Shown piece by piece: positions 2,968 through 16,871 of a DNA stretch of 24,000 nt. Made by a program: the position numbers and the translations under genes. Every line of letters starts with the position of its first letter. Position 1 is the first letter of the stretch. Origin of the DNA: Variovorax sp. H27-G14. GTDB taxonomy: Bacteria > Pseudomonadota > Gammaproteobacteria > Burkholderiales > Burkholderiaceae_C. The notes under the pieces were generated by a model. The model worked only from the letters and a program-made list of their open reading frames with translations, did no database searches and was not told the DNA's origin. Location: positions 87,170 to 111,169 of the forward strand of contig NZ_JAYLVN010000015.1 in assembly GCF_046156345.1 (NCBI RefSeq), read 5' to 3'.

Positions 2968-3043
2968 AAAAGGGCAACTCCAGTTTTTTGAATTTCGACG
3001 CATTCACATTCGGGTGCGGCCACCGGCCCGACTTCGGGGCTTT

Positions 3044-3132: not shown

Positions 3133-4434
3133 TCAGGTCTGGATGGCCTCTGCCTCCCGCCGCGGGTGCGGCGCGGCACCGGCCGCTGTGGCCAGCAGTG
3201 CACTGCCGATTTCGCCGGTTCTGACCGAGGTGACCGACAACAGGGTGTCGCTCAGGCCGTGCGAATCCTCGCAGGCGCCCTGCAGGTAGATGGCCGGATG
3301 AAAGTCCGGCGTGGCCTGCAGGCGGTACTGGCGGTCGACCGTGTAGTCGCCCAGGTAGCCCGCCAGCGGCGCGAGCAGGGCCTTGTGCTGATCCCGCGCG
3401 TAGCCGGTGGCGAGCACCACGGCGTCGTAGCGCACTGTGTGCTCGCGCTGGACGTTCTGGTCCCACAGCGTGAGGTGCACCCCCTGGGCGTCGGCCACGA
3501 CGTTGCGGATGTCATGCTGGCGCAGAAAGCGCAGTCGGTTGCCGCCGGTCACGCGCTGTTGGTAGAAGGCCTTGTAGATCTGCTGGATCAGCTCCAGGTC
3601 GGCCACCGCGTAGTTGGTGTGCCAGAACTCGTCGAGCAGCGCGGCGCGCTCCGCCTCGGAGCGGCTGAAGGTGTAGTCGGTGAACTCGGCGTTGAAGATC
3701 TCGTTGACGAAGGGGCTGTCGTCTGCCGGTCGGATCGAGCGTGCGCGCGTGATCAGGTCGACCTGCGGCGCGCCGGGGCGGCCCTGCAGGTCCATGAAGA
3801 TCTCGGCCGCGCTCTGCCCCGCGCCCACCACGGCAACGCGCCGGGCCTCGGCGTGCTTCGCCATGTTCTGCAGGTAGCTGCTCGAATGGAACACGCGCGG
3901 GTCGTTGCGCAGCGTGCGAAAGCCATCGGGAATATTGGCCGTGCCGCCAATGCCGACCACGAGGTTGCGCGTCAGGCGTTCGATGAGCTTGCCCGCGTGG
4001 TTGCGCGAGCGCACGCGCAGCAGCGTCACCTCGCCGCCCGCATCGTGCGGCAGCACCTCGACCACTTCCTCGCCATAGGCGCAGGCATCTTCGAACTGCT
4101 CGGCCGCCCAGGAGAGGTAGTCGTTGAATTCGTGGCGGCTGGGAAAGAAGCTCTTCAGGTTGGCGAAGGCGGTCAGCCGGCCTTTTTGGTGCAGGTAGTT
4201 GACGAAGGTGAAGCGGCTGGTCGGGTTGCGCAGCGTGGCCAGGTCCTTCAGAAAGGAGATCTGCATGTGCGCATGGTCCAGCAGCATGTGCGGATGCCAG
4301 GCGAAGCTCAGCTGCTTCTCGATGAACAGCGCGTCGAGCGGCCGGCTGGCATGGCGCTTTTCCTCGAGTGCGATGGCCAGGGCGATGTTGGACGGGCCGA
4401 ACCCGATCCCGACCAGATCATGGACGTGTGGCAT
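3133..4434 (-). CDS. pvdA: L-ornithine N5-monooxygenase (PvdA/SidA/IucD family flavin N-hydroxylase)
   Basis: FAD motif GIGFGPSNIALA, NADPH motif VVGAGQSAAE, DAVVLATGY and SHGLSDTLLS motifs. It is collinear by eye with PvdA throughout. ATG at 4434 lies 9 nt after GGAG; the TTG at 4443 in the ORF track is less likely. Confidence 0.93.
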   Translation of the reverse strand: MPHVHDLVGIGFGPSNIALAIALEEKRHASRPLDALFIEKQLSFAWHPHMLLDHAHMQISFLKDLATLRNPTSRFTFVNYLHQKGRLTAFANLKSFFPSRHEFNDYLSWAAEQFEDACAYGEEVVEVLPHDAGGEVTLLRVRSRNHAGKLIERLTRNLVVGIGGTANIPDGFRTLRNDPRVFHSSSYLQNMAKHAEARRVAVVGAGQSAAEIFMDLQGRPGAPQVDLITRARSIRPADDSPFVNEIFNAEFTDYTFSRSEAERAALLDEFWHTNYAVADLELIQQIYKAFYQQRVTGGNRLRFLRQHDIRNVVADAQGVHLTLWDQNVQREHTVRYDAVVLATGYARDQHKALLAPLAGYLGDYTVDRQYRLQATPDFHPAIYLQGACEDSHGLSDTLLSVTSVRTGEIGSALLATAAGAAPHPRREAEAIQT

Positions 4435-4524
4435 GAAAATCAACTCCTGTGATGGGGGCGGCGCGCCGTGTGCGGCGGCCTGCCCTGGGCCGTGTGTAAG
4501 AAGACGCTCGGCGGCGCCGGATGT

Positions 4525-5361
4525 TCACGCGTCCACGGTCTCGGCCAGCAGGGCCAGGCCCTGATGAAGCGCCGGGAACAGGCTGCGATTGAAATTGTTC
4601 CAGCGCAGCTCGAGGATGGTGTCCTCGGGATCGATGTCTGTGCCCAGCACGTCGAAGATGACTTCGCCGGAGTCGATGCCGGTGTCCACATAGTGCAATG
4701 ACGCGCCGGTCTTGCGCACCGGCTCGACCGAGACCGTTTCGCGCGTGTGCCAGTCGACCACCCGCTGGCCCCGCGCGCCGTGCAGCGCATCCAGCGTGGC
4801 CCAGGCGCCGCGGCGCTCGAAGGGCGACCCCAGCCGCGTGATGCCCGGGTGGATGTTCACGATCCTGCGAAAGAACGGGCTTTGCGGCCGCGCCAACTGA
4901 TCGAGGATCACCAGCAGCCCGTCGAGCACGACGATGTCGGCGCGCAGTGCGTGCAGGCGATCGAGCAGGCGCTGCTCGAACTCCTTTTTGCCGGCGGCGC
5001 GTTCGGCGGTGGCCTCCAGCGGCAGCCGGCGGTAGGTCGACGGCACGTTGTGAAAGATGTCGTTGACGCGGCGGCCCTGCGCCTGGAGCTCGCCGGGAAA
5101 GATGCACTGGCGCGACGGCGCAAAGCCGAACCCGTAGTCCTGCAGGGCCTTGCGGTCGCGCGGGGAGCCTTCGTCGTCGTCGAACAGCACCGCCTCGAGC
5201 GCGTAGGCGTCGCCCAGCGGCGTGCTGTCCAGGGCTTGCGCCAGCGACTCCAGCGGGGACTTCATGTAGCGCTGCTGGCCCCTGTAGTCGATGTGCTGGC
5301 CGGCCTTGTCGGCCGCCGCATTCCTCAGGGACATGATGTAGACGAGTTTTGCCTTGGGCAT
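4525..5361 (-). CDS. pvdF: N5-hydroxyornithine formyltransferase (PvdF-like, GART fold)
   Basis: N-terminus KLVYIMSLRNAAADKAG...RYMKSPLESL resembles PvdF as I recall it. Formyltransferase motif IVNIHPG. About 278 aa, like PvdF, and adjacent to a pvdA-like gene. Confidence 0.8.
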   Translation of the reverse strand: MPKAKLVYIMSLRNAAADKAGQHIDYRGQQRYMKSPLESLAQALDSTPLGDAYALEAVLFDDDEGSPRDRKALQDYGFGFAPSRQCIFPGELQAQGRRVNDIFHNVPSTYRRLPLEATAERAAGKKEFEQRLLDRLHALRADIVVLDGLLVILDQLARPQSPFFRRIVNIHPGITRLGSPFERRGAWATLDALHGARGQRVVDWHTRETVSVEPVRKTGASLHYVDTGIDSGEVIFDVLGTDIDPEDTILELRWNNFNRSLFPALHQGLALLAETVDA

Positions 5362-5424
5362 GGAGATGGGGAGCTGGGCTCGGTGGGTGGTTGGAAGAAA
5401 AAACGAGAAGGCGCAGTGCTGCGT

Positions 5425-6243
5425 TCAGCGGTGCTTTGGCGACAGCGGGCAGACGCCGCAGTAGCCCTCGCCGGGCAGGAGGTGAAGCAGGCAGCACTGG
5501 CGATGCAGCTTCACGGCCTGGTCTCGGCCCTGGAAGCGCACGCGAATCTCGCGCTGCGGGCCGGGCAGGGGGTTGGCCCAAACCATTTCGACTGCTTCAA
5601 ATGCATCGGCTGCATCGGCTGCATCGGCTCCATTGGCTTCATTGGACGAAGGACTGCCGGCCCCCCACGCCGGGTTGTGCAGCAGTTGCTGGCGGTCGTT
5701 CGCGATGGGCGCCGCTCCACCGGTCAGCGCCAGGGCCTGGTCCAGCACCGGCTCCAGGTTGCGCGCGGCATTGCCCCACAGGATCTTGGTGGCGATGCCC
5801 GTCAGGTGTCGCAGCGCCGAGAAGAGCGGCTCCAGGTGCTCGCGCAGCAGCGCCGAATAGCGTGCCTGGGTGCTTGCGCCCCGCTGCGGCCGGCCCAGCT
5901 CGCGGATGTGAAAGCTCAACGGGTGGGCGTGCGCGTCGAGCCGCACCCAGACCTGATCGGCGGCCATCGGGAACACGTGCTGCAGCACGCTGGCGGCGGC
6001 TGCGGTGGGTGGCAGCAGCGTGCCGAGGTAGCGCAGGCTCCAGGCCGACGCCACCGCGCGCAAGTCGGCGCCCGCTACGCCCAGGTGCGCCGCATGCTGG
6101 CGCAGCACACGGCCCAGCAGGTCGGGCGAGCGCACCAGGTCGGCCACGCGCAGCGCGCCCGCGGGTGGGTGCGGCGCGCATTGCAGCGCCTCGCCGTGTG
6201 GCGCCAGATCACCCCGGAACAGCGGTTCCAGCAGCGCGATCAT
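5425..6243 (-). CDS. fhuF: Siderophore-iron reductase, FhuF family (C-terminal 2Fe-2S motif)
   Basis: C-terminal motif CCLLHLLPGEGYCGVCPL (C-C-x10-C-x2-C) typical of FhuF. Size ~270 aa. Siderophore context. Confidence 0.8.
   Translation of the reverse strand: MIALLEPLFRGDLAPHGEALQCAPHPPAGALRVADLVRSPDLLGRVLRQHAAHLGVAGADLRAVASAWSLRYLGTLLPPTAAAASVLQHVFPMAADQVWVRLDAHAHPLSFHIRELGRPQRGASTQARYSALLREHLEPLFSALRHLTGIATKILWGNAARNLEPVLDQALALTGGAAPIANDRQQLLHNPAWGAGSPSSNEANGADAADAADAFEAVEMVWANPLPGPQREIRVRFQGRDQAVKLHRQCCLLHLLPGEGYCGVCPLSPKHR
5602..5646. repeat. In-frame 9-bp tandem repeat inside fhuF-like CDS
   Basis: tgcatcggc x3 perfect (5602-5628), followed by tccattggc and ttcattgga. It encodes ...NEANGADAADAADAF... 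on the minus strand. Confidence 0.9.
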
Positions 6244-6282
6244 GGCGCGGTCGTGGTGCGGTGTTTTGCAGGGTGCATACAG

Positions 6283-6312
6283 CTAGGACGGATGGACCGC
6301 CCCGGTGTTCAT
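6283..6312 (-). promoter_or_regulatory. ECF-sigma-type promoter for the fhuF-pvdF-pvdA (possibly receptor) transcription unit
   Basis: The minus strand reads TGAACA (6311-6306)-N14-CCGTC (6291-6287)-CTAG. The -10 lies ~45 nt upstream of the fhuF ATG (6243). It is near-identical to the plus-strand site 40 bp away. Confidence 0.5.
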
Positions 6313-6346: not shown

Positions 6347-6375
6347 GTGAACATTTCTGCGGGCCGCCCGTCTAG
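6347..6375 (+). promoter_or_regulatory. ECF-sigma-type promoter for the pvdE-fur-macAB-opmQ operon
   Basis: gTGAACA (6348-6353)-N14-CCGTC (6368-6372)-TAG, with the classic ECF AAC/CGT cores 16 nt apart. It lies ~100 nt upstream of the ATG at 6472. A second GTGAAC sits at 6335-6340. Confidence 0.5.
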
Positions 6376-6471
6376 AGGAGTACAGGCGGCCCGGTCGCCC
6401 TTCGTTCGCGTCGGTGGCAGGGGTTGCCCTGCCACCGACCACAGTCGCCTGCGGGCGGAAAGAGTTCTTGC

Positions 6472-8159
<1,688 letters not shown>

Positions 8160-8163
<4 letters not shown>

Positions 8164-8747
8164 ACGACGGCCTGGAACCCCACGACGCGCAACGCCCGGC
8201 GTTCTTGACGCAACTGCGGGCCGCATGCATCCGGCCGTCGGTCGTGCGGCTGTGCGTGCTGCAGACGCTGGCGGACGCCGGCACCGAGTGGCAGCGCGGC
8301 GAAGAGGTGTTCCGCCGCATGCTGCTGCGTGGCACCTCGGCCAGCCTGACCACGGTCTACCGCATCCTCAAGGAGTTCGAGCATGCGGGGCTCATCGAGC
8401 GCGAATGGGTGCGCAGCCGGGGCGGCGCGCTGGCGGTGTTCCGCTACGCAGCACCCGACGCGCACGCCAATGCCGCGAGTGTGCGCATGCGCTGCAGCGG
8501 TTGCGGCGCCGCCACCGAGGTGCACGACCGCGAACTCCACGAGGCGCTGACCCGCGTGGCGCGGAACCAGGGCCTGCCGCCCAGGGGCACCTTCGACGTG
8601 CAGATCCACGGCGCCTGCGCGGCGTGTCGGCAGGCTGGCGCCTTCGAGTCGTCGAGCGACAGCGGATCGGGCGGTCACGCCAGGATGCTGCCGCTCGCGG
8701 GTTTCCAGCCCCGCCCACGTGCGCGCGCGCAGCGTCTGGCGGCGTAG
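8160..8747 (+). CDS. Fur-family transcriptional regulator, divergent paralog with C-terminal extension
   Basis: ATGA start/stop overlap with pvdE (8160-8163). Winged-helix part (RLCVLQTLAD...SLTTVYRILKEFEHAGLIER) and CxxC...CxxC (CSGCG...CAAC) are collinear with E. coli Fur. The His-rich regulatory site is largely absent. There is a ~50 aa Ser/Arg/Pro-rich tail. Confidence 0.8.
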
Positions 8748-8750
8748 CGG

Positions 8751-9947
8751 GTGGGTGGCGTGAGTGATATGCACGATGCACGCGATGCGCGTCAGGGCGC
8801 CTGGCGGCGACGTGCGGTTGCGTGGCTGTTGGTTTTCTTGTGCGCGGCGGCCGGCGCGGGGCTGCTGTGGGGGCGCGGCGAGGCCGCGGATGTGGCGTCC
8901 GTGGCGGTCGTGCGAGGCACCATCGAATCCAGCGTCACGGCGCTCGGCGTGCTGCAGCCGCGGCACTACGTGGACGTGGGCGCACAGGTCTCGGGGCAGA
9001 TCCTGCGGTTGCACGTGCAGCCGGGCGACGTCGTCGAACGCGGGCAACTGCTGGTGGAGATCGACCCCAGCGTGCAGCAGGCCACGGTGGACGCGGGCCG
9101 TGCGTCGCTCGCGGGGCTGCGCGCACAGCGCGACGACCAGCGGGCCCAGCACCTGCTGGCGCAGCAGCAGCACCAAAGGCAGCGCCAGATGGCGGCCGAC
9201 GGCGCCACGCGCGACGAGGACGTGCAGGGCGCGCAGGCCACGCTGACATCGGCCGCTGCGCGCGTGCGCCAGTTCGAGGCACAGGTGGTGCAGACCCAGG
9301 CGACGCTGAAGGCCGACGTGGCCCGCCTCGGCTACACGCGCATCTACGCGCCGATGGCCGGCACCGTCGTGTCGGTGGAGGCCCGGGAAGGCCAGACGCT
9401 CAACGCCACCTACCAGACGCCCAACGTGCTGCGCATCGCCGACCTGTCGTCGATGACGGTGTGGTCCGAGGTGTCGGAGGCTGACGTGCGGCGCATCAAG
9501 ACCGGCATGCCGGTCTACTTCACCACGCTCGGCGAAAGCCAGCGCCGCTGGCAGGGCCGCGTGCGGCAACTTCTGCCCGCGCCGCCGGTGCCCGAGAACA
9601 AGTCGAACGGCGACGGCGGCGCCAAGGCCTCCGGCGCGGCGAGCAAGGTGGTGGTCTACACGGCGCTGTTCGACGTCGACAACGCCGACGGCGAACTGAT
9701 GCCGCAGATGACGGCCAAGGTCGCCTTTGTCGAATACGCCGAGAAGGACGTGCTCTTGGTGCCGCTTGCCGCGCTGGTGCCGGTGGCCGGCAGCGGCGAT
9801 CGCTTCATCGCGCGCGTGTTGCGCCCCGACGGCAAGGTCGAGCCGCGGCAGCTGCGCGTTGGCGTGCGCAACCGGCTTTCCGCCCAGGTGCTGGACGGCA
9901 TGCAGCCGGGGGAGCGCATCGTCACCGCCACGGCGGCGAAGCCATGA
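8751..9947 (+). CDS. macA: Periplasmic adaptor (HlyD/MacA family; PvdR-like) of tripartite efflux pump
   Basis: N-terminal TM anchor, lipoyl/hairpin motifs (VSGQILRLHVQPGDVVERGQLLVEID, coiled-coil, YTRIYAPMAGTV). The start is GTG 8751 or ATG 8769. The stop overlaps the macB start (ATGA at 9944-9947). Confidence 0.88.
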   Translation: MGGVSDMHDARDARQGAWRRRAVAWLLVFLCAAAGAGLLWGRGEAADVASVAVVRGTIESSVTALGVLQPRHYVDVGAQVSGQILRLHVQPGDVVERGQLLVEIDPSVQQATVDAGRASLAGLRAQRDDQRAQHLLAQQQHQRQRQMAADGATRDEDVQGAQATLTSAAARVRQFEAQVVQTQATLKADVARLGYTRIYAPMAGTVVSVEAREGQTLNATYQTPNVLRIADLSSMTVWSEVSEADVRRIKTGMPVYFTTLGESQRRWQGRVRQLLPAPPVPENKSNGDGGAKASGAASKVVVYTALFDVDNADGELMPQMTAKVAFVEYAEKDVLLVPLAALVPVAGSGDRFIARVLRPDGKVEPRQLRVGVRNRLSAQVLDGMQPGERIVTATAAKP

Positions 9948-11950
9948 CGCCGGCGGCAAGCGCTGGCGGCGACACGCCCCGGCCCCTGATCGAACTGCAG
10001 GGCATCGGCAAGTCTTACGGCGGCCAAGACGCCTTGGCGGGCGCTCCGGCCACCACGGTGTTGCATGGCATCTCGCTGCGCATTCATGCCGGCGAATTCG
10101 TGGCCATCGTCGGTGCCTCGGGCTCGGGCAAGTCCACGCTGATGCACATTCTGGGTTGCCTCGACCGGCCGAGCGCTGGCCGCTACCTGTTCGACGGGCA
10201 GGACGTGGCCAGCTTCGACGCCGACGCGCTTGCCTGGCTGCGCCGCGAGGCCTTCGGCTTCGTGTTTCAGGGCTACCACCTTGTGCCCAGCGAATCGGCG
10301 CGCGAGAACACCGAGATTCCCGCGCTCTACGCCGGCATGCCCGAAGCCGAACGGCGCGCGCGTGCAACCGCACTGCTCGAGCGGCTGGACATGGGCGCGC
10401 GGCTCGACCATCGCCCGCACCAGCTGTCGGGCGGGCAGCAGCAGCGCGTGGCCATCGCGCGCGCGCTGATGAACGGCGGGCGCATCATCCTGGCCGACGA
10501 GCCCACCGGTGCGCTCGACAGCAAGAGCGGCGCCGAGGTGATGGCGCTGCTGCACGAGCTGGCGGACGCGGGCCACACCATCATCCTCATCACGCACGAC
10601 CGGACGGTGGCCGCGCAGGCGCGCCGCGTCATCGAGATCCGCGACGGGCGCATCGTGGCGGACGCGGGCCACGGCGAGAGCGACGGCATGGCCGCTCCCG
10701 CGCCCGGCGCCGCGCCTGCGCCGGCGGCGCCCTTCAGGCACCCGACCTCGCCCGGCGGCGCGTCGCTGCTCGCCGACATTCACGAAGCCACGAGGGCGGC
10801 CTGGCGCGTCATGTGGAGCAACAGGTTGCGCACCGGCCTCACGCTGCTGGGCATCGTGATCGGCGTCGCCTCGGTCATCGTGATGCTGGCGGTGGGCGGC
10901 GGCTCGCAGCAGAAGGTGATGGCGCAGTTCGAAACCTTCGGCACCCGCACCATGTTCGTTGCCGCGCAGATCGCCAGCCTGCGCAACCCGAGCGCGCCGC
11001 TCACGCTGGAGGACGCGCTGGCCATCGGCACGCTGGCGAACGTGGAGGGCGTCGCGCCCTACATCGAGGACAAGGTGGTGGTGCGCCGCGGCAACGTCGA
11101 CCATCTCACGGAGGGCGGGGGCGCCACTGTCGATTTCTCGCGCGTGCTCGGCTGGGCCGTGAGCCAGGGCGTGATGTTCGACGCCGAGGACGAACGGCGC
11201 GTCGCCAAGGTGGCCGTGATCGGCGAGACGGTGCGCAAACGCTTGTTCGCCGACGGGCAGAACCCCCTCGGTCAGGACATTCTGGTGGACAAGGTGCCGT
11301 TCCAGGTGGTCGGCGTGCTGGCCTCCAAGGGCGCCACGGACGGCGAGGACCAGGACGACCGGGTGGTGGTGCCGCTGTCTTCGGCGGCCACCCGGGTCTA
11401 CGGTCATGCCAACCCGACGTGGATTGCGGTGCAGGTGCGCGACATCGACAAGGCTCAGGAAACGGCCACCGCCATCGAGGCGCAACTCGAGCGGCAGCAG
11501 GCCGGGCGCAACGTGCTGGTATGGAACCGTGTCGAGGCGTTGCGCGTGCAGACCGAGACCGCCCGTGCCATGACCATGATGCTGGGGCTGATCGCGATCG
11601 TGTCGCTGGTGGTGGGCGGCATCGGCGTGATGAACGTGATGCTGATGACGGTGCGCGAGCGCACGCGCGAGATCGGCATCCGCATGGCCACCGGCGCGCG
11701 GCAGCGAGACATTCAGCGTCAGTTCATGACGGAGGCGGTGCTCGTGACCTCGGTGGGTGGGACGCTCGGCGTTGCCGCGGGGCTGGGCATCGTGGTGGCG
11801 CTGTTGCTGGCGGGCGTGCCGGTGACGTTCTCGCTGCCTGCGAGCATCGGCGCCTTCGGCTGCGCGGTGCTGACGGGCGTGATCTTCGGCTTCATGCCGG
11901 CGCGCAACGCCGCGCGGCTCGACCCGGTCGTGGCGCTGGCGGGGGAGTGA
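9944..11950 (+). CDS. macB: MacB-type ABC transporter, fused ATPase-permease (PvdT-like)
   Basis: N-terminal NBD (GASGSGKST, LSGGQQQRVAIARAL, ILADEPTGALD) followed by an FtsX-like four-TM permease with a large periplasmic domain. 668 aa. Confidence 0.92.
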   Translation: MTPAASAGGDTPRPLIELQGIGKSYGGQDALAGAPATTVLHGISLRIHAGEFVAIVGASGSGKSTLMHILGCLDRPSAGRYLFDGQDVASFDADALAWLRREAFGFVFQGYHLVPSESARENTEIPALYAGMPEAERRARATALLERLDMGARLDHRPHQLSGGQQQRVAIARALMNGGRIILADEPTGALDSKSGAEVMALLHELADAGHTIILITHDRTVAAQARRVIEIRDGRIVADAGHGESDGMAAPAPGAAPAPAAPFRHPTSPGGASLLADIHEATRAAWRVMWSNRLRTGLTLLGIVIGVASVIVMLAVGGGSQQKVMAQFETFGTRTMFVAAQIASLRNPSAPLTLEDALAIGTLANVEGVAPYIEDKVVVRRGNVDHLTEGGGATVDFSRVLGWAVSQGVMFDAEDERRVAKVAVIGETVRKRLFADGQNPLGQDILVDKVPFQVVGVLASKGATDGEDQDDRVVVPLSSAATRVYGHANPTWIAVQVRDIDKAQETATAIEAQLERQQAGRNVLVWNRVEALRVQTETARAMTMMLGLIAIVSLVVGGIGVMNVMLMTVRERTREIGIRMATGARQRDIQRQFMTEAVLVTSVGGTLGVAAGLGIVVALLLAGVPVTFSLPASIGAFGCAVLTGVIFGFMPARNAARLDPVVALAGE

Positions 11951-11952
11951 CC

Positions 11953-13434
11953 ATGTTGCGCACACCGTTTGTATTTCGCACTGCCTGGGTGTTGTCGTGC
12001 GCGGCATGGGTGAGCGGCTGTGCGTTGCAGGGCGACCGCGCAGATCGCGCGGTGGCGCTGCCTGCTGCGTGGCAAGCCGCACCGCCCGCACCGCCCGCAC
12101 CGCCCGCACCGCCCGCACCGCCTACACCGCCTGCACCAGCCGCGGCGGGCCCGGTCGATGCAGATTGGTGGCGCAGCTTCGGCAGCACCGAACTCGACGC
12201 GCTGGTTGCGCTCGCGCAGGCGCAAAGCAACGATCTGGCCGCCGCCGCGGCGCGCGTGGCGCAGGCCGACGCGCTGGCCCGCATCGCCGGTGCGGCATTG
12301 CGCCCGCAGCTCACGGCCACGCTGGACGCTGCCCGCGAAGGGCGATTGGGCGGGCAAGCGGCGGTCGATGGCAGCACCTACGCCGCCGGCTTCAGCGCCC
12401 GCTACGAACTTGACCTGTGGGGCCGCGACGCCGCATCGCGCGACCAGGCGCTGCAAGACGTGCGTGCAAGCGCCTTCGAGCGCGACACAGTGCGGCTGGG
12501 CGTGACGGCCAGCGTTGCATCGGCGTGGCTGCTGGGGCAGGCACTGCGCGAGCGCGCCGGCATTGCGCAGCGCAATCTCGACAATGCGCGCCGCGTGCTG
12601 GCGCTGGTCGAATCGCGCAGCCGTGCCGGCGCGGTGTCGCCGCTGGACCTGGCACAGCAACGCGGGCTGGTGGCCGCTCAACAGCGCAGCGTTGCGGCGC
12701 TGCTGCAGCAGGCACGCGATGCGCAAGCCGCGCTCGCGGTGCTGCTGGGAGCCACATCGCCGGTGGCCGCAGGGCCGGGCCTTGCACTCGATTTGCTGCA
12801 GGTGCCGTCCATTGATGCCGGCGCGCCGTCGGCGCTGCTGCTGCGTCGCCCTGACATCGCCCGCGCCGAGGCGCAGCTGGCCGCTGCCGACGCCAATGTG
12901 CTGGCCGCGCGCGCCGCGTTGCTGCCCACCGTGTCGTTGAGCGCGTCGGTGGGCACGGGGCAGGGCCGCTTCGGCAGGCTGTTCGACAACCCGCTCTACA
13001 GCCTGGCCGCGGGCTTGGCCGCGCCGATCTTCGATGGTGGCCGGCTGGCCGGCGGTCGTGAGCTTGCGCAGGCCCGGCGAGAGGAACTGCTGGCCGCCTA
13101 CCGCGGTGTCATCGTCGCGGCGCTTGCCGATGCGCAGACTGCGCTGAACGCGGTGTCGGGCACCGACGCACAGGCCGGCGCACAGGCCGTCGAGCTGGCC
13201 GAAGCGCGGCGCGCGGCCGTGCTGTCGGAGTCGCGCTACCGCGCGGGCGCCGAGACACTGCTGAGCTTGCTGGACGCGCAGCGCACGCTCTACGTGGCGC
13301 AGGACCTGTCGGTGCAGTTGCGCATGGCGCGCCTGCAGGCGCGGGTTGCGCTGTACCGCGCGCTGGGTGGCGGCTGGCAGGCGGACCTGCGTGCGGGTGC
13401 GCCTTCTGCGGTGAAGGCGGCAACGCCCGGCTGA
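11953..13434 (+). CDS. NodT/OprM-family outer-membrane efflux lipoprotein (OpmQ-like)
   Basis: Lipobox WVSGC, Pro-rich linker, and two TolC-like repeats (WW..F....L..L...A...N.DL, SRYRAGAETLLSLLDAQRTLY, LYRALGGGW). It starts 2 nt after the macB stop. Confidence 0.9.
   Translation: MLRTPFVFRTAWVLSCAAWVSGCALQGDRADRAVALPAAWQAAPPAPPAPPAPPAPPTPPAPAAAGPVDADWWRSFGSTELDALVALAQAQSNDLAAAAARVAQADALARIAGAALRPQLTATLDAAREGRLGGQAAVDGSTYAAGFSARYELDLWGRDAASRDQALQDVRASAFERDTVRLGVTASVASAWLLGQALRERAGIAQRNLDNARRVLALVESRSRAGAVSPLDLAQQRGLVAAQQRSVAALLQQARDAQAALAVLLGATSPVAAGPGLALDLLQVPSIDAGAPSALLLRRPDIARAEAQLAAADANVLAARAALLPTVSLSASVGTGQGRFGRLFDNPLYSLAAGLAAPIFDGGRLAGGRELAQARREELLAAYRGVIVAALADAQTALNAVSGTDAQAGAQAVELAEARRAAVLSESRYRAGAETLLSLLDAQRTLYVAQDLSVQLRMARLQARVALYRALGGGWQADLRAGAPSAVKAATPG
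12079..12141. repeat. In-frame 9-bp tandem repeat (gcaccgccc) in the OMP lipoprotein linker
   Basis: Four perfect units (12079-12114) plus three degenerate ones. It encodes APPAPPAPPAPPAPPTPPAPA just after the lipobox. Confidence 0.92.
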
Positions 13435-13443
13435 ACATTCGCG

Positions 13444-13785
13444 GTGCTGGTTCGTCTCTTTCATGACAGGCCGGTGTCACGCGTGCAGATGCGCGGCGCG
13501 CCCGGCAACCATCCAACCGAACCCTACAGCCCTGGAGCAGCAGCCGTGGCCCCGCAAAACCATTCGGAGGCGCCGTCCGCGGACGAGACCGCATGGCGTC
13601 TCTACATGGACCTCAGAGAGAACCCCTGCCGCACGAGCGCGCTGAAGCTGACGCACTGGCTGCGTGAAGGCCACGCACACCCGAAGGCGTTAGAGCGTGC
13701 ACTTCGGCTCTGGGCGCTCGCGGGTGCGGCGCTGGTCGTCTCGCGCCGCAGAGACCTGCATCCGCCCACGGGCGGCATCGAATGA
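13444..13785 (+). CDS. Small soluble protein with a single FecR-N-terminal-like (DUF4880-type) sigma-binding domain, copy A
   Basis: Motif AWRLYMDL...LKLTHWLREGHAHPKALERALRLW, with W-x17-W spacing and His at +7 as in FecR N-domains. No TM helix. The start is uncertain (GTG 13444 or ATG 13489). Third positions are mostly GC. Confidence 0.6.
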   Translation: MLVRLFHDRPVSRVQMRGAPGNHPTEPYSPGAAAVAPQNHSEAPSADETAWRLYMDLRENPCRTSALKLTHWLREGHAHPKALERALRLWALAGAALVVSRRRDLHPPTGGIE

Positions 13786-14090
13786 CGCGCGGCGAGCTGG
13801 CCATTCGCGCCGATGTGCTCGATGTGCCCGATGAATGCATTCGCGCCGCGGCGTCGCTCTTCGCCAGCGTGCATGCGGCGCCGACGTTGCAGAACGCCGA
13901 ACGGCTGGTGCATTGGCTTGGCCAGCACCCGCTGCACGCGCGGGCGCTGGACATCGCGCTCACGCAGTGGGGGCTGGCGCAGTCGGGGCATTCCGCCACC
14001 TTCGGCATCACCGCCACCGCCAACTCCAGCAACGACTCCGGCGTCACCGCTTGCCTTGACGCCTGTGTCCCTTCCGCGAATGGCGGCTGA
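13782..14090 (+). CDS. Small soluble protein with a single FecR-N-terminal-like (DUF4880-type) domain, copy B
   Basis: ATGA overlap with copy A (13782-13785). Motif AASLFASV...AERLVHWLGQHPLHARALDIALTQW with the same W-x17-W spacing and His at +7. No TM helix. High GC3. Confidence 0.62.
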   Translation: MTRGELAIRADVLDVPDECIRAAASLFASVHAAPTLQNAERLVHWLGQHPLHARALDIALTQWGLAQSGHSATFGITATANSSNDSGVTACLDACVPSANGG

Positions 14091-14113
14091 CGCGCGCAGG
14101 CCCGGCGTGCGCT

Positions 14114-15193
14114 TCAGCGCATCCGCAGGGCCACGCTGCCGTCGCCGCGCTGCTCGCTCGCAAGCGGCAGGATCGTCGGAAGCACGGCCACCAGGCCGTC
14201 GGAATCGTTGGTGCGAAAACGCCCCGAGAGTCGCATGGCGTCGATGCGCGTGTTGGTCGTGACGATGGGCTGCGCGCGGTAGCTGTTGATGGCGGCAAGC
14301 GCGTCGCCCAGCGGCGTGTTCTCGAACACCAGCCAACCGCTGCGCCACGCGGACAGCGCGGCCGTGTCGGTCTGGCGCACGGTGCTGGCGTGGCCGTCGC
14401 CGTCGATCTCGAGCAGGTCGCCCTTGCGCAGGTCGATCACGTCGCCCTGCATGCTGCCCTGCGTGCCGCCGGGCCCGCGGCGCGGCGCCAGACGCACCCG
14501 CACATGGCCGTGTTCCACGCCCACGGTCACAGGGCCGCCGCGGTCGCGCACGGTGAAAGCGGTGCCGACCACCTCGATGGTGGCGCTGCGCGTGTGCACC
14601 TCGAACGGGCGGTCGCTGTCTGGAGACACCTCGAAGCGCACCTCGCCGCGTGCCATGTCGACGAAGCGGCGCTGGCGATACAGCGTGACGTCGATGGCGC
14701 TCTGCGGTGCCAGGTCGAGCTGGCTGCCTGCATGCCCGCTCCCCTCGCGCCCATCCACCAGTGTCACCTTCAGCATCTGCGCGGTGCGCGTCTGGTAGGC
14801 CGAGCGAAACACCGGCTGCTGCCAATACCACTGCACGCCGCGTCCCGCCACCAACCCGGCGCCCAGCAGGCCCGCCACGCTGAACAGCATCTTGCGGCGC
14901 TGCTGCTGCCGCTGGCTGGACGATGCGGTCGCGGAGGCCGCGGCCGCCGCGTTGGCCATCAGCGGGCCTGCGGGTTCGTCGAAGTGCGCGCGCAGGTCGT
15001 GCGCCATGCCGCCCAGGGCGCTCCAGCGTTGGCGTGCTTCCTGCACGGCCGCTGCATGTTCGTTCGACTTGACGCGCCACTGGTTGAGCGCCGTGCGGGC
15101 CGGGTCCGCGGCATCGCCGGGTGCCATTTCGCCTTCGAGGATCAGCGCCAGGGCGCGTTCGACCAGTCGTTCGCGCGGTGCGCCCATTGCCAT
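14114..15193 (-). CDS. fecR: FecR-family transmembrane anti-sigma factor / sigma regulator
   Basis: N-domain (LNQWRVKSNEHAAAVQEARQRW), one TM helix (MLFSVAGLLGAGLVAG), a periplasmic FecR domain (VVGTAFTVRD...VGVEHGHVRV) and a C-terminal VFENTPLGDALAAINSY...RLSGRF. ATG at 15193 lies 8 nt after the sigma stop. Confidence 0.9.
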   Translation of the reverse strand: MAMGAPRERLVERALALILEGEMAPGDAADPARTALNQWRVKSNEHAAAVQEARQRWSALGGMAHDLRAHFDEPAGPLMANAAAAASATASSSQRQQQRRKMLFSVAGLLGAGLVAGRGVQWYWQQPVFRSAYQTRTAQMLKVTLVDGREGSGHAGSQLDLAPQSAIDVTLYRQRRFVDMARGEVRFEVSPDSDRPFEVHTRSATIEVVGTAFTVRDRGGPVTVGVEHGHVRVRLAPRRGPGGTQGSMQGDVIDLRKGDLLEIDGDGHASTVRQTDTAALSAWRSGWLVFENTPLGDALAAINSYRAQPIVTTNTRIDAMRLSGRFRTNDSDGLVAVLPTILPLASEQRGDGSVALRMR

Positions 15194-15201
15194 CCCGCCG
15201 C

Positions 15202-15831
15202 TCACGAAAAATCTTCCGCCAGCGCCGCGTCGAAGCCCTGGCGGTTCGCCAGCACCTGCGGCTCGATCAGTTCGGCGCGCAGTTGCGCGAACACGCGCGA
15301 GCAGTCGATGGTGGCGCGCAGCATGTGCTTGGCCACAGCCATTTCGGTGATGTTCAGGCGCTGCGCGATTTCGGCGCGCGTGTGGCCGTAGGCACGAAAG
15401 AGCAGGAACACTTCGCGCCGGCGCGGCGGGAGCTTTTCCATGGTCTCCACCACGCGTGCGAGCACGCGCTGCTGGGCAACCACGTATTCGCTGGACTGGG
15501 CCGTCTGGTGCATGCCGACGTCGGCGTGCGCGCCGGCCCACTCCTGCGCCACCTTTCGGTGGCGAGCGTCGTCGATGCACAGGTTGCGTGCCACGCGAAA
15601 GAGCAGGGCGCGGGGCGACTCGATGGCTTCATGCACGCCGGGCGTGCCTGGCATGCCTGGCATGCCTGGCGTGGCGGACGGGCCGCCACGCGACTTCAGC
15701 GCCGCCGAATACACCCGCTCGAAGCTGGACTGCGCGATGTCGGCCGCGTAATGCGGGTCTCTCAGGTCGCGGGTGAGCTGTCGGCGCAGGTCCGCATAGT
15801 GAGCTACCAGTTCCTGAACGAGGTCGCGCAT
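15202..15831 (-). CDS. ECF sigma-70 factor, FecI/FpvI/PvdS-like iron-starvation type
   Basis: Region 2 (ADIAQSSFERVY...LLFRVARNLCIDDARHRK) and region 4 HTH (LPPRRREVFLLFRAYGHTRAEIAQRLNITEMAVAKHMLRA). ATG at 15831 follows GAAGG. It is adjacent to fecR. Confidence 0.9.
   Translation of the reverse strand: MRDLVQELVAHYADLRRQLTRDLRDPHYAADIAQSSFERVYSAALKSRGGPSATPGMPGMPGTPGVHEAIESPRALLFRVARNLCIDDARHRKVAQEWAGAHADVGMHQTAQSSEYVVAQQRVLARVVETMEKLPPRRREVFLLFRAYGHTRAEIAQRLNITEMAVAKHMLRATIDCSRVFAQLRAELIEPQVLANRQGFDAALAEDFS
15641..15676. repeat. In-frame 9-bp tandem repeat inside the ECF sigma CDS
   Basis: ggcgtgcct, ggcatgcct, ggcatgcct, ggcgtggcg. It encodes ATPGMPGMPGTPG between sigma regions 2.1 and 2.2. 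Confidence 0.9.
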
Positions 15832-16070: not shown

Positions 16071-16112
16071 GTTCCTCGGCCTCCACCTCTTCCGCTGTTC
16101 AAAGAGTTGCTC

Positions 16113-16871
16113 ATGTCTTCTTCCAACACCGCCCGCGAAGCACCCCCAAACGTTGCACAGCCAAACGCTGCCGCGCCAGGGCTTGTGGAACGCACGCTCA
16201 CACGCTTGTTCTTGCGCCCGGCGCGCGTCATCTCTGCCACCACGCTGTCGGCGCGCTTCCGGCTCATCGACCTGGAGGGCGTGACCTTCGAGGGCAACCA
16301 ATGGTCGCCCGGCCAGAAGGTGCAGATCAAACTCGACGGCGGCTTCATGACGCGCACCTACACGCCCATGCGCTGGGACGCCGCGCGCGGCGTGACCCGC
16401 ATCGTGGCCTTCGCGCATGGCGAGGGGCCGGGCAGCAACTGGGTGTGCCGCACTGGCCGGGGCGATGCGCTGCAGGTGTTCGGCCCGCGCCGCTCGCTCG
16501 ACCTGGCGCCGCCGCCGGTGACCAGCGTGGTCTTCGGTGACGAGACTTCGTTCGGCCTCGTGGCGTCGCTGGGTCTGCAGGGGAGCGCTCGCGCCGTGTT
16601 CGAAGTGGGCGCCATTGCAGAGTCGCTGCAGGTGTTGCAAGCGCTCGGCATCCAGCCGCTGGCGCTGATGGAGCGCCGCACCGACGACTCGCACCTTGCC
16701 GAGCTGCAGTCGGCGATGCTGACGCCTTCGGACGCCAGCACGCAGTACGTGCTGACCGGCAAGGCGTCGTCCATCCGGCAGATGGGCCGCGCGCTGAAGG
16801 CACAGGGCATCGAGGCGCGGCGCATCAAGGCCAAGGCCTACTGGGCGCCAGGCAAGAGCGGGCTCGACTGA
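16113..16871 (+). CDS. Siderophore-interacting protein (SIP/ViuB family FAD-binding ferric-siderophore reductase)
   Basis: FAD-binding part (GQKVQIKLDGGFMTRTYTPMRWD, R-x-Y-T/S motif) and an NAD(P)H-binding C-half (VVFGDETSFG...YVLTGKASSIRQMGRALK). ATG at 16113 lies 6 nt after AAAGAG. Confidence 0.82.
   Translation: MSSSNTAREAPPNVAQPNAAAPGLVERTLTRLFLRPARVISATTLSARFRLIDLEGVTFEGNQWSPGQKVQIKLDGGFMTRTYTPMRWDAARGVTRIVAFAHGEGPGSNWVCRTGRGDALQVFGPRRSLDLAPPPVTSVVFGDETSFGLVASLGLQGSARAVFEVGAIAESLQVLQALGIQPLALMERRTDDSHLAELQSAMLTPSDASTQYVLTGKASSIRQMGRALKAQGIEARRIKAKAYWAPGKSGLD

Follow-up and report, generated by a model that had tools for sequence, protein, structure and literature searches.

The 24,000-nucleotide stretch of Variovorax sp. 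H27-G14 DNA analyzed here (the window) contains two small plus-strand ORFs, ORF A and ORF B, annotated as VLK31_26820 and VLK31_26825. The flanking genes encode an OEP efflux protein, a FecR, an ECF sigma factor, and a TonB receptor that contains an STN domain (Table 1). The locus is pyoverdine-like, and its sigma factor is predicted to drive biosynthesis and export genes. An earlier note on this DNA had described two plus-strand ORFs joined by an ATGA overlap, lying between an efflux gene and a convergent fecR/ECF sigma pair with a 23-bp gap, and this layout was borne out. The sigma factor probably has the full-length FecR as its primary partner. Its orthologs are highly conserved in four other loci (L001, L005, L024, and L025), and the sigma factor is near-identical in Variovorax and Rhodoferax loci that carry a small gene of this kind. 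The small genes are tied to the same sigma/FecR orthogroup in the window and in those four loci. A scan of 13300-14300 found neither an intrinsic-terminator-like site nor a sigma-70 promoter, and an Rfam scan of 12500-15500 gave no match.

Table 1. Features of the ORF A-ORF B locus and copies of its promoter motif, in window coordinates.
Feature	Position	Strand	Remarks
Promoter motif	4503..4527	-	Just 5' of PvdA-like ornithine monooxygenase gene; kept in L005
Promoter motif, divergent	6287..6311	-	5' of FhuF/formyltransferase genes; kept in L001 and L005
Promoter motif	6348..6372	+	5' of export operon (ABC exporter, Fur-like, HlyD, MacB, OMF)
ECF/iron-starvation-type promoter, TGAACA-N15-CGTC	13432..13458	+	Directly 5' of ORF A; -35 region TGAACAT, 13432-13438; -10 region CGTCTC, 13453-13458
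Shine-Dalgarno GGAG	13534..13537	+	8 nt 5' of the ORF A GTG; read from sequence
ORF A, A-type mini DUF4880-like protein, 79 aa	13546..13785	+	GTG start; VLK31_26820 (GenBank start 13444 too long)
ATGA overlap	13782..13785	+	Stop of ORF A is start of ORF B (translational coupling)
ORF B, B-type mini DUF4880-like protein, 102 aa	13782..14090	+	VLK31_26825
Convergent gap, 23 bp	14091..14113	.	ORF B stop at 14090; fecR stop at 14114 (minus strand)
Full-length FecR-type sigma regulator, 359 aa	14114..15193	-	PF04773 FecR at 1e-18
ECF (FecI/PvdS-like) sigma factor, 209 aa	15202..15831	-	Sigma70_r4_2 2.6e-14; ECF superfamily TIGR02937 49.6 bits

The length of 102 residues given earlier for ORF B is correct, and the 98-113 residues given for ORF A are too many. 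Longer starts at 13444 and 13492 were rejected because they lie in or just past the conserved promoter and because the homologs are shorter. A search with ORF A returned 11 homologs, all 79-80 residues long and 70-83% identical, and the ORF A copies in the Variovorax loci have this length too and keep the GTG start. The CTGGAG at the ORF A Shine-Dalgarno site is likewise kept in the aligned loci. ORF B homologs are 72-91 residues long with 64-78% identity. Their conserved core corresponds to residues 21-70 (nucleotides 13842-13991), ending in WGLAQSGH, and the N- and C-terminal tails vary.

Both ORFs are conserved under purifying selection in 11 other Variovorax loci. The junction TCGAATGA is kept in all 11 of these loci, and a distinct lineage (L026) has the same kind of stop/start overlap, ATCCAATGA. 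The conservation and dN/dS check proposed in the earlier note found the ORFs conserved, with dN/dS of 0.07-0.27 for ORF A and a median of 0.20 for the ORF B core. GC3 is 0.75 for ORF A and 0.84 for ORF B. The two proteins match each other by BLASTP (E 1e-6) and by hhalign (95%). Judged by these comparisons, A and B are paralogs and real genes. Long chance ORFs are abundant in high-GC DNA, here 68% GC, and the variable ORF B tails would also suit non-functional relics, either chance ORFs or decaying fragments of a duplicated fecR. Such relics would not be expected to keep the length and start of ORF A, the junction, and the promoter in 11 loci, or to belong to a family of about 90 clusters. The conservation and the dN/dS values effectively refute this idea, and we regard it as highly improbable.

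The motif W-L-x5-H-x2-A-L-x6-W is present in ORF A (WLREGHAHPKALERALRLW) and ORF B (WLGQHPLHARALDIALTQW), and the W-x17-W spacing with His at +7 recurs in the neighboring FecR (WRVKSNEHAAAVQEARQRW), as had been proposed. Neither protein has a transmembrane helix (maximum Kyte-Doolittle(19) of 1.24 for A and 1.00 for B) or a match to the periplasmic FecR domain PF04773, again in line with the earlier reading, and both end after three predicted helices. AlphaFold2 places the helices of ORF A at residues 12-25, 29-41, and 46-71 (pLDDT 65) and those of ORF B at 17-32, 36-46, and 50-68 (mean pLDDT 90-92 over residues 21-60). The minimal FecI-activating FecR fragment consists of residues 9-59, and L13, W19, W39, and W50 are conserved in the sigma-activating region of Escherichia coli FecR (PMC9249621). 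The predicted three-helix proteins match this minimal fragment in size. In ORF A, residues 17, 38, and 56 are Trp and the C terminus reads ...TGGIE. By alignment, ORF A keeps the first conserved Trp; in ORF B it is replaced by Ser, with W45 and W63 kept, and the local FecR also lacks it.

The earlier note assigned the two proteins to the FecR N-terminal domain, Pfam DUF4880 (PF16220), and had named the absence of a DUF4880 match above threshold as grounds for rejection. Formally, this is what the scan returned. The gathering threshold is 25 bits; ORF B scores 13.8 bits, and ORF A gives no match at E <= 10. Eight family-type members scanned singly score 13.7-23.1 bits on DUF4880 or do not match, all below threshold. 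The N-domain of the neighboring full-length FecR itself scores just 16.1 bits. DUF4880 is the only recurrent Pfam match, found in 10 of 12 A-type members, 7 of 8 B-type members, and 19 of 29 members of the wider family, always below threshold and in register. The best E-value among the 12 A-type members is 1.8e-4, and in six of the eight scanned members matching DUF4880 the alignment spans all or nearly all of its 43 model positions or at least the greater part of them. A search of 1.8 billion proteins with the family profile reached the bona fide DUF4880 proteins P0045 (41 bits, E 2e-4) and P0047 (36 bits, E 8e-4), and this link is reciprocal. The similarity is therefore consistent, specific, and near-full-length at the family level. 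The consistent in-register matches and the reciprocal profile link identify A and B, from their sequences, as remote homologs and divergent paralogs of the FecR N-terminal (DUF4880) domain, so the assignment stands at the family level and not at the Pfam threshold. Alignments with the neighboring FecR N-domains are in register over all three helices, including the W/H/W positions, and hhalign gives just E 0.004 and a probability of 9%. A recent copy of the neighboring FecR N-domain was rejected on the same value, set against 70-93% identity among the FecR N-domains. No NCBIfam family matched either ORF, a PDB sequence search with profiles A1, A2, and canonical P0045 gave chance matches only, and Foldseek against the PDB found no match for the small proteins.

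A promoter of the ECF/iron-starvation type, TGAACATTC-N13-CGTCTC, lies directly 5' of ORF A, its start coinciding with the OMF stop codon TGA. Across the window, 0.07 copies of AACATT-N13-CGTC are expected and two are present, at 6350 and 13434; T[GA]AAC-N16-17-CGTC occurs five times compared to 0.33 expected. Seven aligned Variovorax loci share identical -35 and -10 blocks and differ in spacer and leader. The promoter accompanies ORF A even where the upstream gene differs. In other loci the motif is found directly 5' of the mini gene (L014, L021, and L024) or 5' of its operon (L017, L025, and L026). Thus, the pair is not simply the tail of the export operon, as first described. An ECF-type promoter shared with the siderophore genes had been correctly anticipated; the pair has a separate copy of it, where read-through from the export operon had been assumed. 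The motif pattern indicates that the A-B pair is its own transcription unit with a promoter of the kind that the ECF sigma factor of the locus would read, which would make it a member of the sigma regulon: the motif is shared with siderophore operons and conserved in relatives. A motif scan of the window found no copy at the sigma-fecR operon.

ORF A and ORF B are members of a family of stand-alone proteins that comprises about 90 clusters. Most of these come from Variovorax and Rhodoferax, and the typical length is 79 residues. A genome-collection scan returned only Variovorax because its patterns are specific to the A-type, and the wider taxonomy comes from other searches. Every member found lies within a hydroxamate siderophore cluster, and some are already annotated as 'DUF4880 domain-containing protein' or 'FerR'. 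Most members are single-copy. A second lineage (L026) also has the A-B tandem, and in a third (L017) A and B are fused as one 135-residue protein, P0021. No FecR or sigma gene was found within 8-10 kb of the family members in L014/L027 and L017. L021 contains a sigma factor, a canonical stand-alone DUF4880 protein (27.5 bits), and, under its own promoter, a family-type mini. The C-terminal residue is Gln or Glu in 90 of 96 A-type members, and 69 of 96 end in LQ. The terminal residue is not a by-product of the ATGA overlap: in single-copy members, whose genes close with CTGCAG-TGA, CTGCAG-TAG, or CTGCAA-TAG, no start codon overlaps the stop. The earlier note knew of no characterized system of this kind, and we found no published functional study of the family; this locus is not the only one with the architecture, which is one form of the wider family.

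In a role unrelated to the sigma factor, the DUF4880 resemblance would reflect only a shared helical fold. The proteins might be small accessories of siderophore export or maturation, or partners of the Fur-like regulator (8160-8747) embedded in the operon. The mini genes always adjoin a PvdE-like exporter, PvdA, a PvdQ-like acylase, or a MacB-OMF pump, and P0031 joins a Fur-like wHTH to a mini domain. Every DUF4880 match is sub-threshold, and FecR proteins are not known to share the conserved C-terminal LQ. Against this stand the facts that DUF4880 is the sole recurrent match and is in register at the W/H/W positions, that the link to true DUF4880 proteins is reciprocal, and that no similarity to transport or enzyme families was found. 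We judge a sigma-unrelated role unlikely.

The closest known counterparts are the FecR-type N-domains, such as E. coli FecR 1-59/1-85, Pseudomonas aeruginosa FpvR 1-67, FoxR 1-93, and the P. capeferrum PupR ASD. Like A and B they comprise about 50-80 residues, form a predicted three-helix bundle, and have Trp, Leu, and His in register (W-x17-W, His at +7). They also occur in the same setting of a siderophore locus with a FecI-type sigma factor, a FecR, and a TonB receptor bearing STN. Soluble fragments engineered from these regulators bind sigma region 4 and either activate (FecR, FoxR, and FiuR) or inhibit (FpvR) the sigma factor (PMC9249621). In contrast, A and B are natural separate genes, a coupled pair without the single transmembrane helix and the periplasmic PF04773/C-terminal signaling domain of FecR. 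They score below the DUF4880 threshold and have their own sigma-type promoter, and the A-type ends in a conserved [LIM][QE] for which no FecR counterpart is described. Stand-alone 'ECF sigma - DUF4880' modules are annotated in Stutzerimonas receptor loci (PMC13037486) and in a Halomonas NRPS siderophore cluster (PMC10291192). These modules, known from annotation and also present in L021, resemble A and B in pairing a siderophore locus and ECF sigma factor with a short DUF4880-only protein that lacks a transmembrane or periplasmic domain. Their proteins pass the DUF4880 threshold, as the L021 example does, and their genes lie beside the sigma gene in the same orientation, apparently encoding its primary partner. 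A and B instead converge on fecR-sigma with fecR in between, and in other loci the mini gene sits among export and biosynthesis genes. They form a separate divergent family found alongside a full-length FecR (in L021, alongside the canonical stand-alone protein), and are putative members of the sigma regulon.

Class I anti-sigma domains of the RsrA or ChrR type are four helices that clamp sigma regions 2 and 4. Autoregulated operons of an ECF sigma factor and a soluble class I anti-sigma resemble the proposed A-B scheme in that a sigma-dependent promoter yields a small cytoplasmic anti-sigma-related protein and feedback. A and B differ in having just three predicted helices, without the helix 4 that contacts the second sigma domain, in lacking Zn-binding or redox motifs, and in not being co-transcribed with the sigma gene.

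A feedback loop on the sigma factor is a reasonable inference because A and B stand under the same ECF promoter type as the siderophore genes. When the sigma factor is active, under iron limitation and siderophore signaling, A and B would be made in equal amounts. They would act jointly, probably as a heterodimer; the conserved ATGA coupling and the natural fusion P0021 suggest joint working. In the cytoplasm they would bind sigma region 4 without the need for membrane-bound FecR, and binding would feed back on sigma activity. The pair may be a soluble anti-sigma or reservoir resembling the FpvR N-fragment, capping and stabilizing the sigma pool. Sigma binding, heterodimerization, and the direction of the effect are what we infer. 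Negative feedback or buffering is the most likely sign, and the sign is the weakest step of the model; the probability that sigma-induced soluble A and B bind region 4 and feed back negatively or buffer is roughly one in three. A sigma-dependent regulator branch is usual in ECF systems. The sigma-fecR operon lacks the motif, and therefore A and B would supply this branch, which favors the negative sign. In the pyoverdine system, a 67-residue N-fragment of FpvR inhibits and stabilizes PvdS and FpvI (PMC9249621), and by analogy the pyoverdine-like character of the locus argues for the same sign. The arrangement in L021, a canonical stand-alone DUF4880 protein plus an extra mini, argues for a role distinct from that of the primary partner. 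Counting against the feedback model are the sub-threshold DUF4880 scores and the lack of any for ORF A, the hhalign result, the absence of a PDB match, the missing first Trp of ORF B, and the loci without a nearby FecR or sigma gene. The near-invariant C-terminal LQ/LE of the A-type is also unaccounted for by it.

The sign of the effect could be opposite, since FecR 1-59, FoxR 1-93, and FiuR 1-91 activate their sigma factors without signal (PMC9249621). A and B would then mimic the FecR N-tail released by RseP, acting as a pro-sigma that binds region 4 and stabilizes or activates the sigma factor. Siderophore genes would stay on without ongoing FecR proteolysis, and in clusters with no full-length FecR nearby the minis would supply the pro-sigma function constitutively. 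Their size of just three predicted helices, that of the activating fragment, their sigma-type promoter, and the lack of FecR in cis in L014/L027 and L017 are all consistent with this possibility. It is made doubtful by the inhibitory N-fragment of the pyoverdine system and by the weakening of signal control that a signal-independent loop would bring. We consider it somewhat less likely than the negative sign.

Instead of the sigma factor, A and B could bind the N-domain of membrane FecR through its dimerization surface and so free or block the sigma factor indirectly, as an anti-anti-sigma by domain mimicry. The PupR anti-sigma domain homodimerizes via M18, L22, and F57, the same residues that bind PupI region 4 (PMC12809585), and A and B look made for pairing. 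Yet the family is present in loci without FecR within 8-10 kb, the neighbor of the sigma factor in L021 is itself a stand-alone domain, and the minis are just remotely similar to the local FecR N-domain. We consider this mechanism quite improbable.

A sigma-induced A-B heterodimer could also act as a built-in stand-in for the FecR N-tail that proteases release, or as a partner-switching decoy of the FecR N-domain, and turn a transient surface signal into a self-sustaining, resettable state. The A-type C-terminal Leu-Gln/Glu would determine how long the module lasts, as a degron or a docking tail. With the same-operon Fur-like protein, the pair would form an unrecognized cytoplasmic control layer over FecI-type signaling, widespread in Comamonadaceae siderophore clusters. 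We offer this as a speculative reading that will probably not hold as a whole.

FecA/FecR/FecI cell-surface signaling is understood as a three-protein relay that ends with proteolysis either releasing or destroying the FecR N-domain. In A and B, evolution appears to have turned this domain into separate soluble genes under the sigma factor's own promoter type, a natural counterpart of the truncations by which pro- and anti-sigma activity were defined experimentally. The DUF4880/FecR N-domain kind is already known, and A and B are a divergent form of it in a family that is unstudied. That family is compact, with about 79 residues, a strongly conserved core, a near-invariant C-terminal LQ/LE, and A-B coupling or fusion. 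The analysis also corrects the start annotated for VLK31_26820 and gives the locus a defined promoter motif. Variovorax is soil- and plant-associated, and its variochelin-like lipopeptide siderophores are of ecological interest. The likely job of the mini family is feedback control of its sigma factor. If A and B bind the sigma factor, they would add a further level of feedback, a possible explanation for hysteresis in siderophore production or for its capping.

ORFs A and B were matched, at 100% each, to the hypothetical proteins VLK31_26820 and VLK31_26825 of Variovorax sp. H27-G14. The genes around them are a hydroxamate, pyoverdine-like siderophore locus. The Fur-family gene lies inside the export operon, an odd site for a Fur paralogue, where it would fall under the ECF-type promoter at 6348; it is also kept in three of the compared loci (L001, L002, and L005). 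The sigma of this strain has a PGMPGMPGTPG insertion in its inter-domain linker (15637-15669, minus strand). The length and sequence of this linker vary in L001, L005, L024, and L025, and the remainder of the sigma is nearly invariant.

Features of the siderophore locus and promoter motif copies, in window coordinates
Feature	Position	Strand	Remark
TonB receptor with STN signalling domain	589-3003	-	
PvdA-like ornithine monooxygenase	3133-4524	-	
Promoter motif TGAACA-N15-CGTC	4503-4527	-	promoter position
Formyltransferase-like gene	4525-5424	-	
FhuF-like gene	5425-6282	-	
Promoter motif TGAACA-N15-CGTC	6287-6311	-	promoter position
Promoter motif TGAACA-N15-CGTC	6348-6372	+	promoter position, export operon
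PvdE-like ABC exporter	6376-8163	+	
Fur-family gene	~8160-8747	+	PF01475, 46.9 bits
HlyD/MacB/OMF pump	8748-13434	+	
Promoter motif TGAACA-N15-CGTC	13432-13458	+	promoter position, ORF A
ORFs A and B	13546-14090	+	
fecR	14114-15193	-	convergent to ORFs A/B
ECF sigma	15202-15831	-	
Siderophore-interacting reductase	16107-16871	+	

The gene anatomy described in the earlier note was present: an ATGA overlap of the two ORFs (13782-13785), a 23-bp gap from ORF B to fecR, the signature W-L-x5-H-x2-A-L-x6-W in both ORFs with its W-x17-W/His spacing repeated in the neighbouring FecR, and no TM-like segment in either ORF. The length first given for ORF A was too long. All 11 homologues found with ORF A are 79-80 aa and start MAPQN..., which maps to the GTG at 13546, preceded by GGAG at 13534-13537. 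Judged by these homologues, the true start is GTG 13546, giving 79 aa. The conserved promoter contains the GenBank start of VLK31_26820 (GTG 13444, 113 aa) in its spacer and -10 region. In every one of 11 further Variovorax loci ORF A is 79 codons from GTG and the A/B junction is TCGAATGA; ORF B preserves a 50-residue core with variable tails on both sides. Pairwise dN/dS was 0.07-0.27 for ORF A with a median of 0.20 for the ORF B core, and GC by codon position in both ORFs is consistent with coding sequence. The N-terminal tail of ORF B is hypervariable from strain to strain. A 9-nt tandem repeat, ATGAGGCGC x3 (MRRMRRMR), opens ORF B in L001 (10237-10263) and likewise in L002 and L012, which creates three alternative in-frame ATGs.

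The sequence relationship between A and B (36% identity across 44 aa, E 1e-6; hhalign 95%, E 2.5e-8) identifies them as paralogues. AlphaFold2 predicted a three-helix bundle for each, with a mean pLDDT of 90-92 for residues 21-60 of the B core and a lower value, 65, for A. The earlier assignment to DUF4880 did not hold at the Pfam threshold: ORF A had no match, and ORF B scored 13.8 bits against a 25-bit cut-off. At the family level DUF4880 was the sole recurrent Pfam match (10/12 A-type, 7/8 B-type, and 19/29 wider members), always sub-threshold at 13-23 bits, and in six of the eight scanned and matching members the alignment spans the 43-position model wholly or for the most part. The N-domain of the undoubted FecR next door scored only 16 bits. 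An exhaustive profile search of 1.8 billion representatives yielded no more than 29 proteins at E < 1e-3, almost all of them stand-alone and 60-88 aa long, and it reached the bona fide DUF4880 proteins P0045 (E 2e-4; Pfam 41 bits) and P0047 (E 8e-4; 36 bits). From these sequence comparisons we take A and B to be remote relatives of DUF4880 that form a separate lineage. Recent copying from the local fecR was rejected, the family being aligned in register but weakly to the neighbouring FecR N-domain (E 0.004).

A profile search of a 5.8-billion-protein set gave 90 clusters. Variovorax supplies most of them (V. paradoxus, V. boronicumulans, and numerous species without a name), next to one Rhodoferax and metagenomic sequences. 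Members are typically 79 aa long with the consensus AW-LF--LHD-PS---A--L--WLG-DP-HVRALDEALTLWALAGAAL, and a few already carry the label 'DUF4880 domain-containing protein' or 'FerR'. The A-type C-terminus is Q or E in 90/96 members and LQ in 69/96, and the ~15 residues before it vary freely; ORF A itself ends in Glu79 (GAA, 13780-13782). The constraint acts at the protein level. Gene overlap was excluded as its source, since single-copy genes end CTGCAG-TGA, CTGCAG-TAG, or CTGCAA-TAG with no overlapping start. The terminal residue matches no known FecR feature and may be a degron or docking tail. One metagenomic contig encodes P0031 (L013 353-898), a 181-aa fusion of a Fur-like wHTH half (39% identity to the export-operon Fur-like protein, E 2e-20) to a mini DUF4880-like domain ending TLQ. 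Its gene is directly 3' of an ABC exporter, joined by an ATGA overlap. P0031 may connect the Fur-like protein to the mini family in the manner of a Rosetta stone, or it may have arisen by an accidental deletion.

All mini-gene contexts examined are hydroxamate siderophore clusters. The Variovorax arrangement of the window is OMF, A, and B, then convergent fecR-sigma; in some strains a PepSY_TM gene stands between OMF and ORF A (L001 8564-9880), and none is present at window position 13434. A single mini gene lies between PvdA and an acylase after an ABC gene in V. boronicumulans (L025, with STN receptor-FecR-sigma nearby), and it follows sigma-FecR-STN receptor and precedes ABC and acylase genes in Rhodoferax (L024). 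The A-B tandem is present again in a second, 63% GC lineage (L026: ABC, HDAC-like gene, A of 76 aa, ATGA overlap, B of 80 aa, with an ECF sigma where the contig ends), and a third lineage has the two fused (L017, GCA_001425785.1: ABC, then a 135-aa A+B fusion). Both cases argue for joint action of A and B. FecR and sigma are absent within 8 kb in L017 and within 8-10 kb in the widespread V. paradoxus type (L014/L027: MacB, OMF, mini, acylase). Such loci count against a simple sigma-binding model, as do the sub-threshold homology and a C-terminal motif that the model leaves without explanation, and a role unrelated to the sigma is possible. In the metagenomic locus L021 (2286-3197), the gene for an ECF sigma is followed by one for a canonical DUF4880 protein of 82 aa that stands alone (27.5 bits), and then by MbtH. 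This arrangement exemplifies the uncharacterised 'ECF sigma - DUF4880' module, and a family-type mini gene lies at a distance of 1.4 kb from it.

The window has exactly two copies of AACATT-N13-CGTC (0.07 expected), one at 6350 upstream of the export operon and one at 13434 directly upstream of ORF A. The looser T[GA]AAC-N16-17-CGTC has five matches against 0.33 expected; the fifth (2280-2304, plus strand), antisense within the receptor gene, is probably chance. The -35 and -10 blocks are unchanged across seven aligned Variovorax loci while spacer and leader drift, and the motif remains with ORF A where the upstream gene is PepSY_TM instead of OMF. In L014, L021, and L024 the motif immediately precedes the mini gene, and in L017, L025, and L026 it precedes the operon that contains this gene; in L021 it is also found before MbtH. 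Within the window there was no copy before the sigma-fecR operon and no clear copy upstream of the TonB receptor gene. The form fits the ECF/iron-starvation-box pattern (TAAAT-N16-CGT for PvdS). We infer that the locus sigma reads the motif, and the four copies likely define its regulon.

The DUF4880 domain and its general biochemistry are already known. FecR 1-59 binds FecI region 4 and activates FecI without signal, with L13, W19, W39, and W50 essential in FecR; FoxR 1-93 and FiuR 1-91 likewise activate their own sigmas, and in contrast a 67-residue FpvR fragment inhibits and stabilises PvdS and FpvI (PMC9249621). The PupR N-domain uses one surface for homodimerisation and for binding PupI residues 99-173 (PMC12809585). 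Binding of A and B to the FecR N-domain is possible. For DUF4880-only proteins beside ECF sigmas, the literature yielded only passing annotation-level mentions, one for Stutzerimonas (PMC13037486) and one for an NRPS cluster of Halomonas (PMC10291192), and no functional study; they are also absent from the ECF reclassification paper. Four features appear undescribed so far: the stand-alone form, the predicted sigma-dependent expression, the paired or fused form, and the conserved C-terminus.

We infer that A and B would be soluble, sigma-induced binders of sigma region 4 that operate as a pair and exert feedback on this sigma. Positive feedback, with A and B as pro-sigma mimics, is nearly as likely as negative feedback. 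We lean toward a negative or buffering sign because the system is pyoverdine-like and its sigma-fecR operon lacks the motif, so that A and B would supply the usual sigma-dependent regulator branch.
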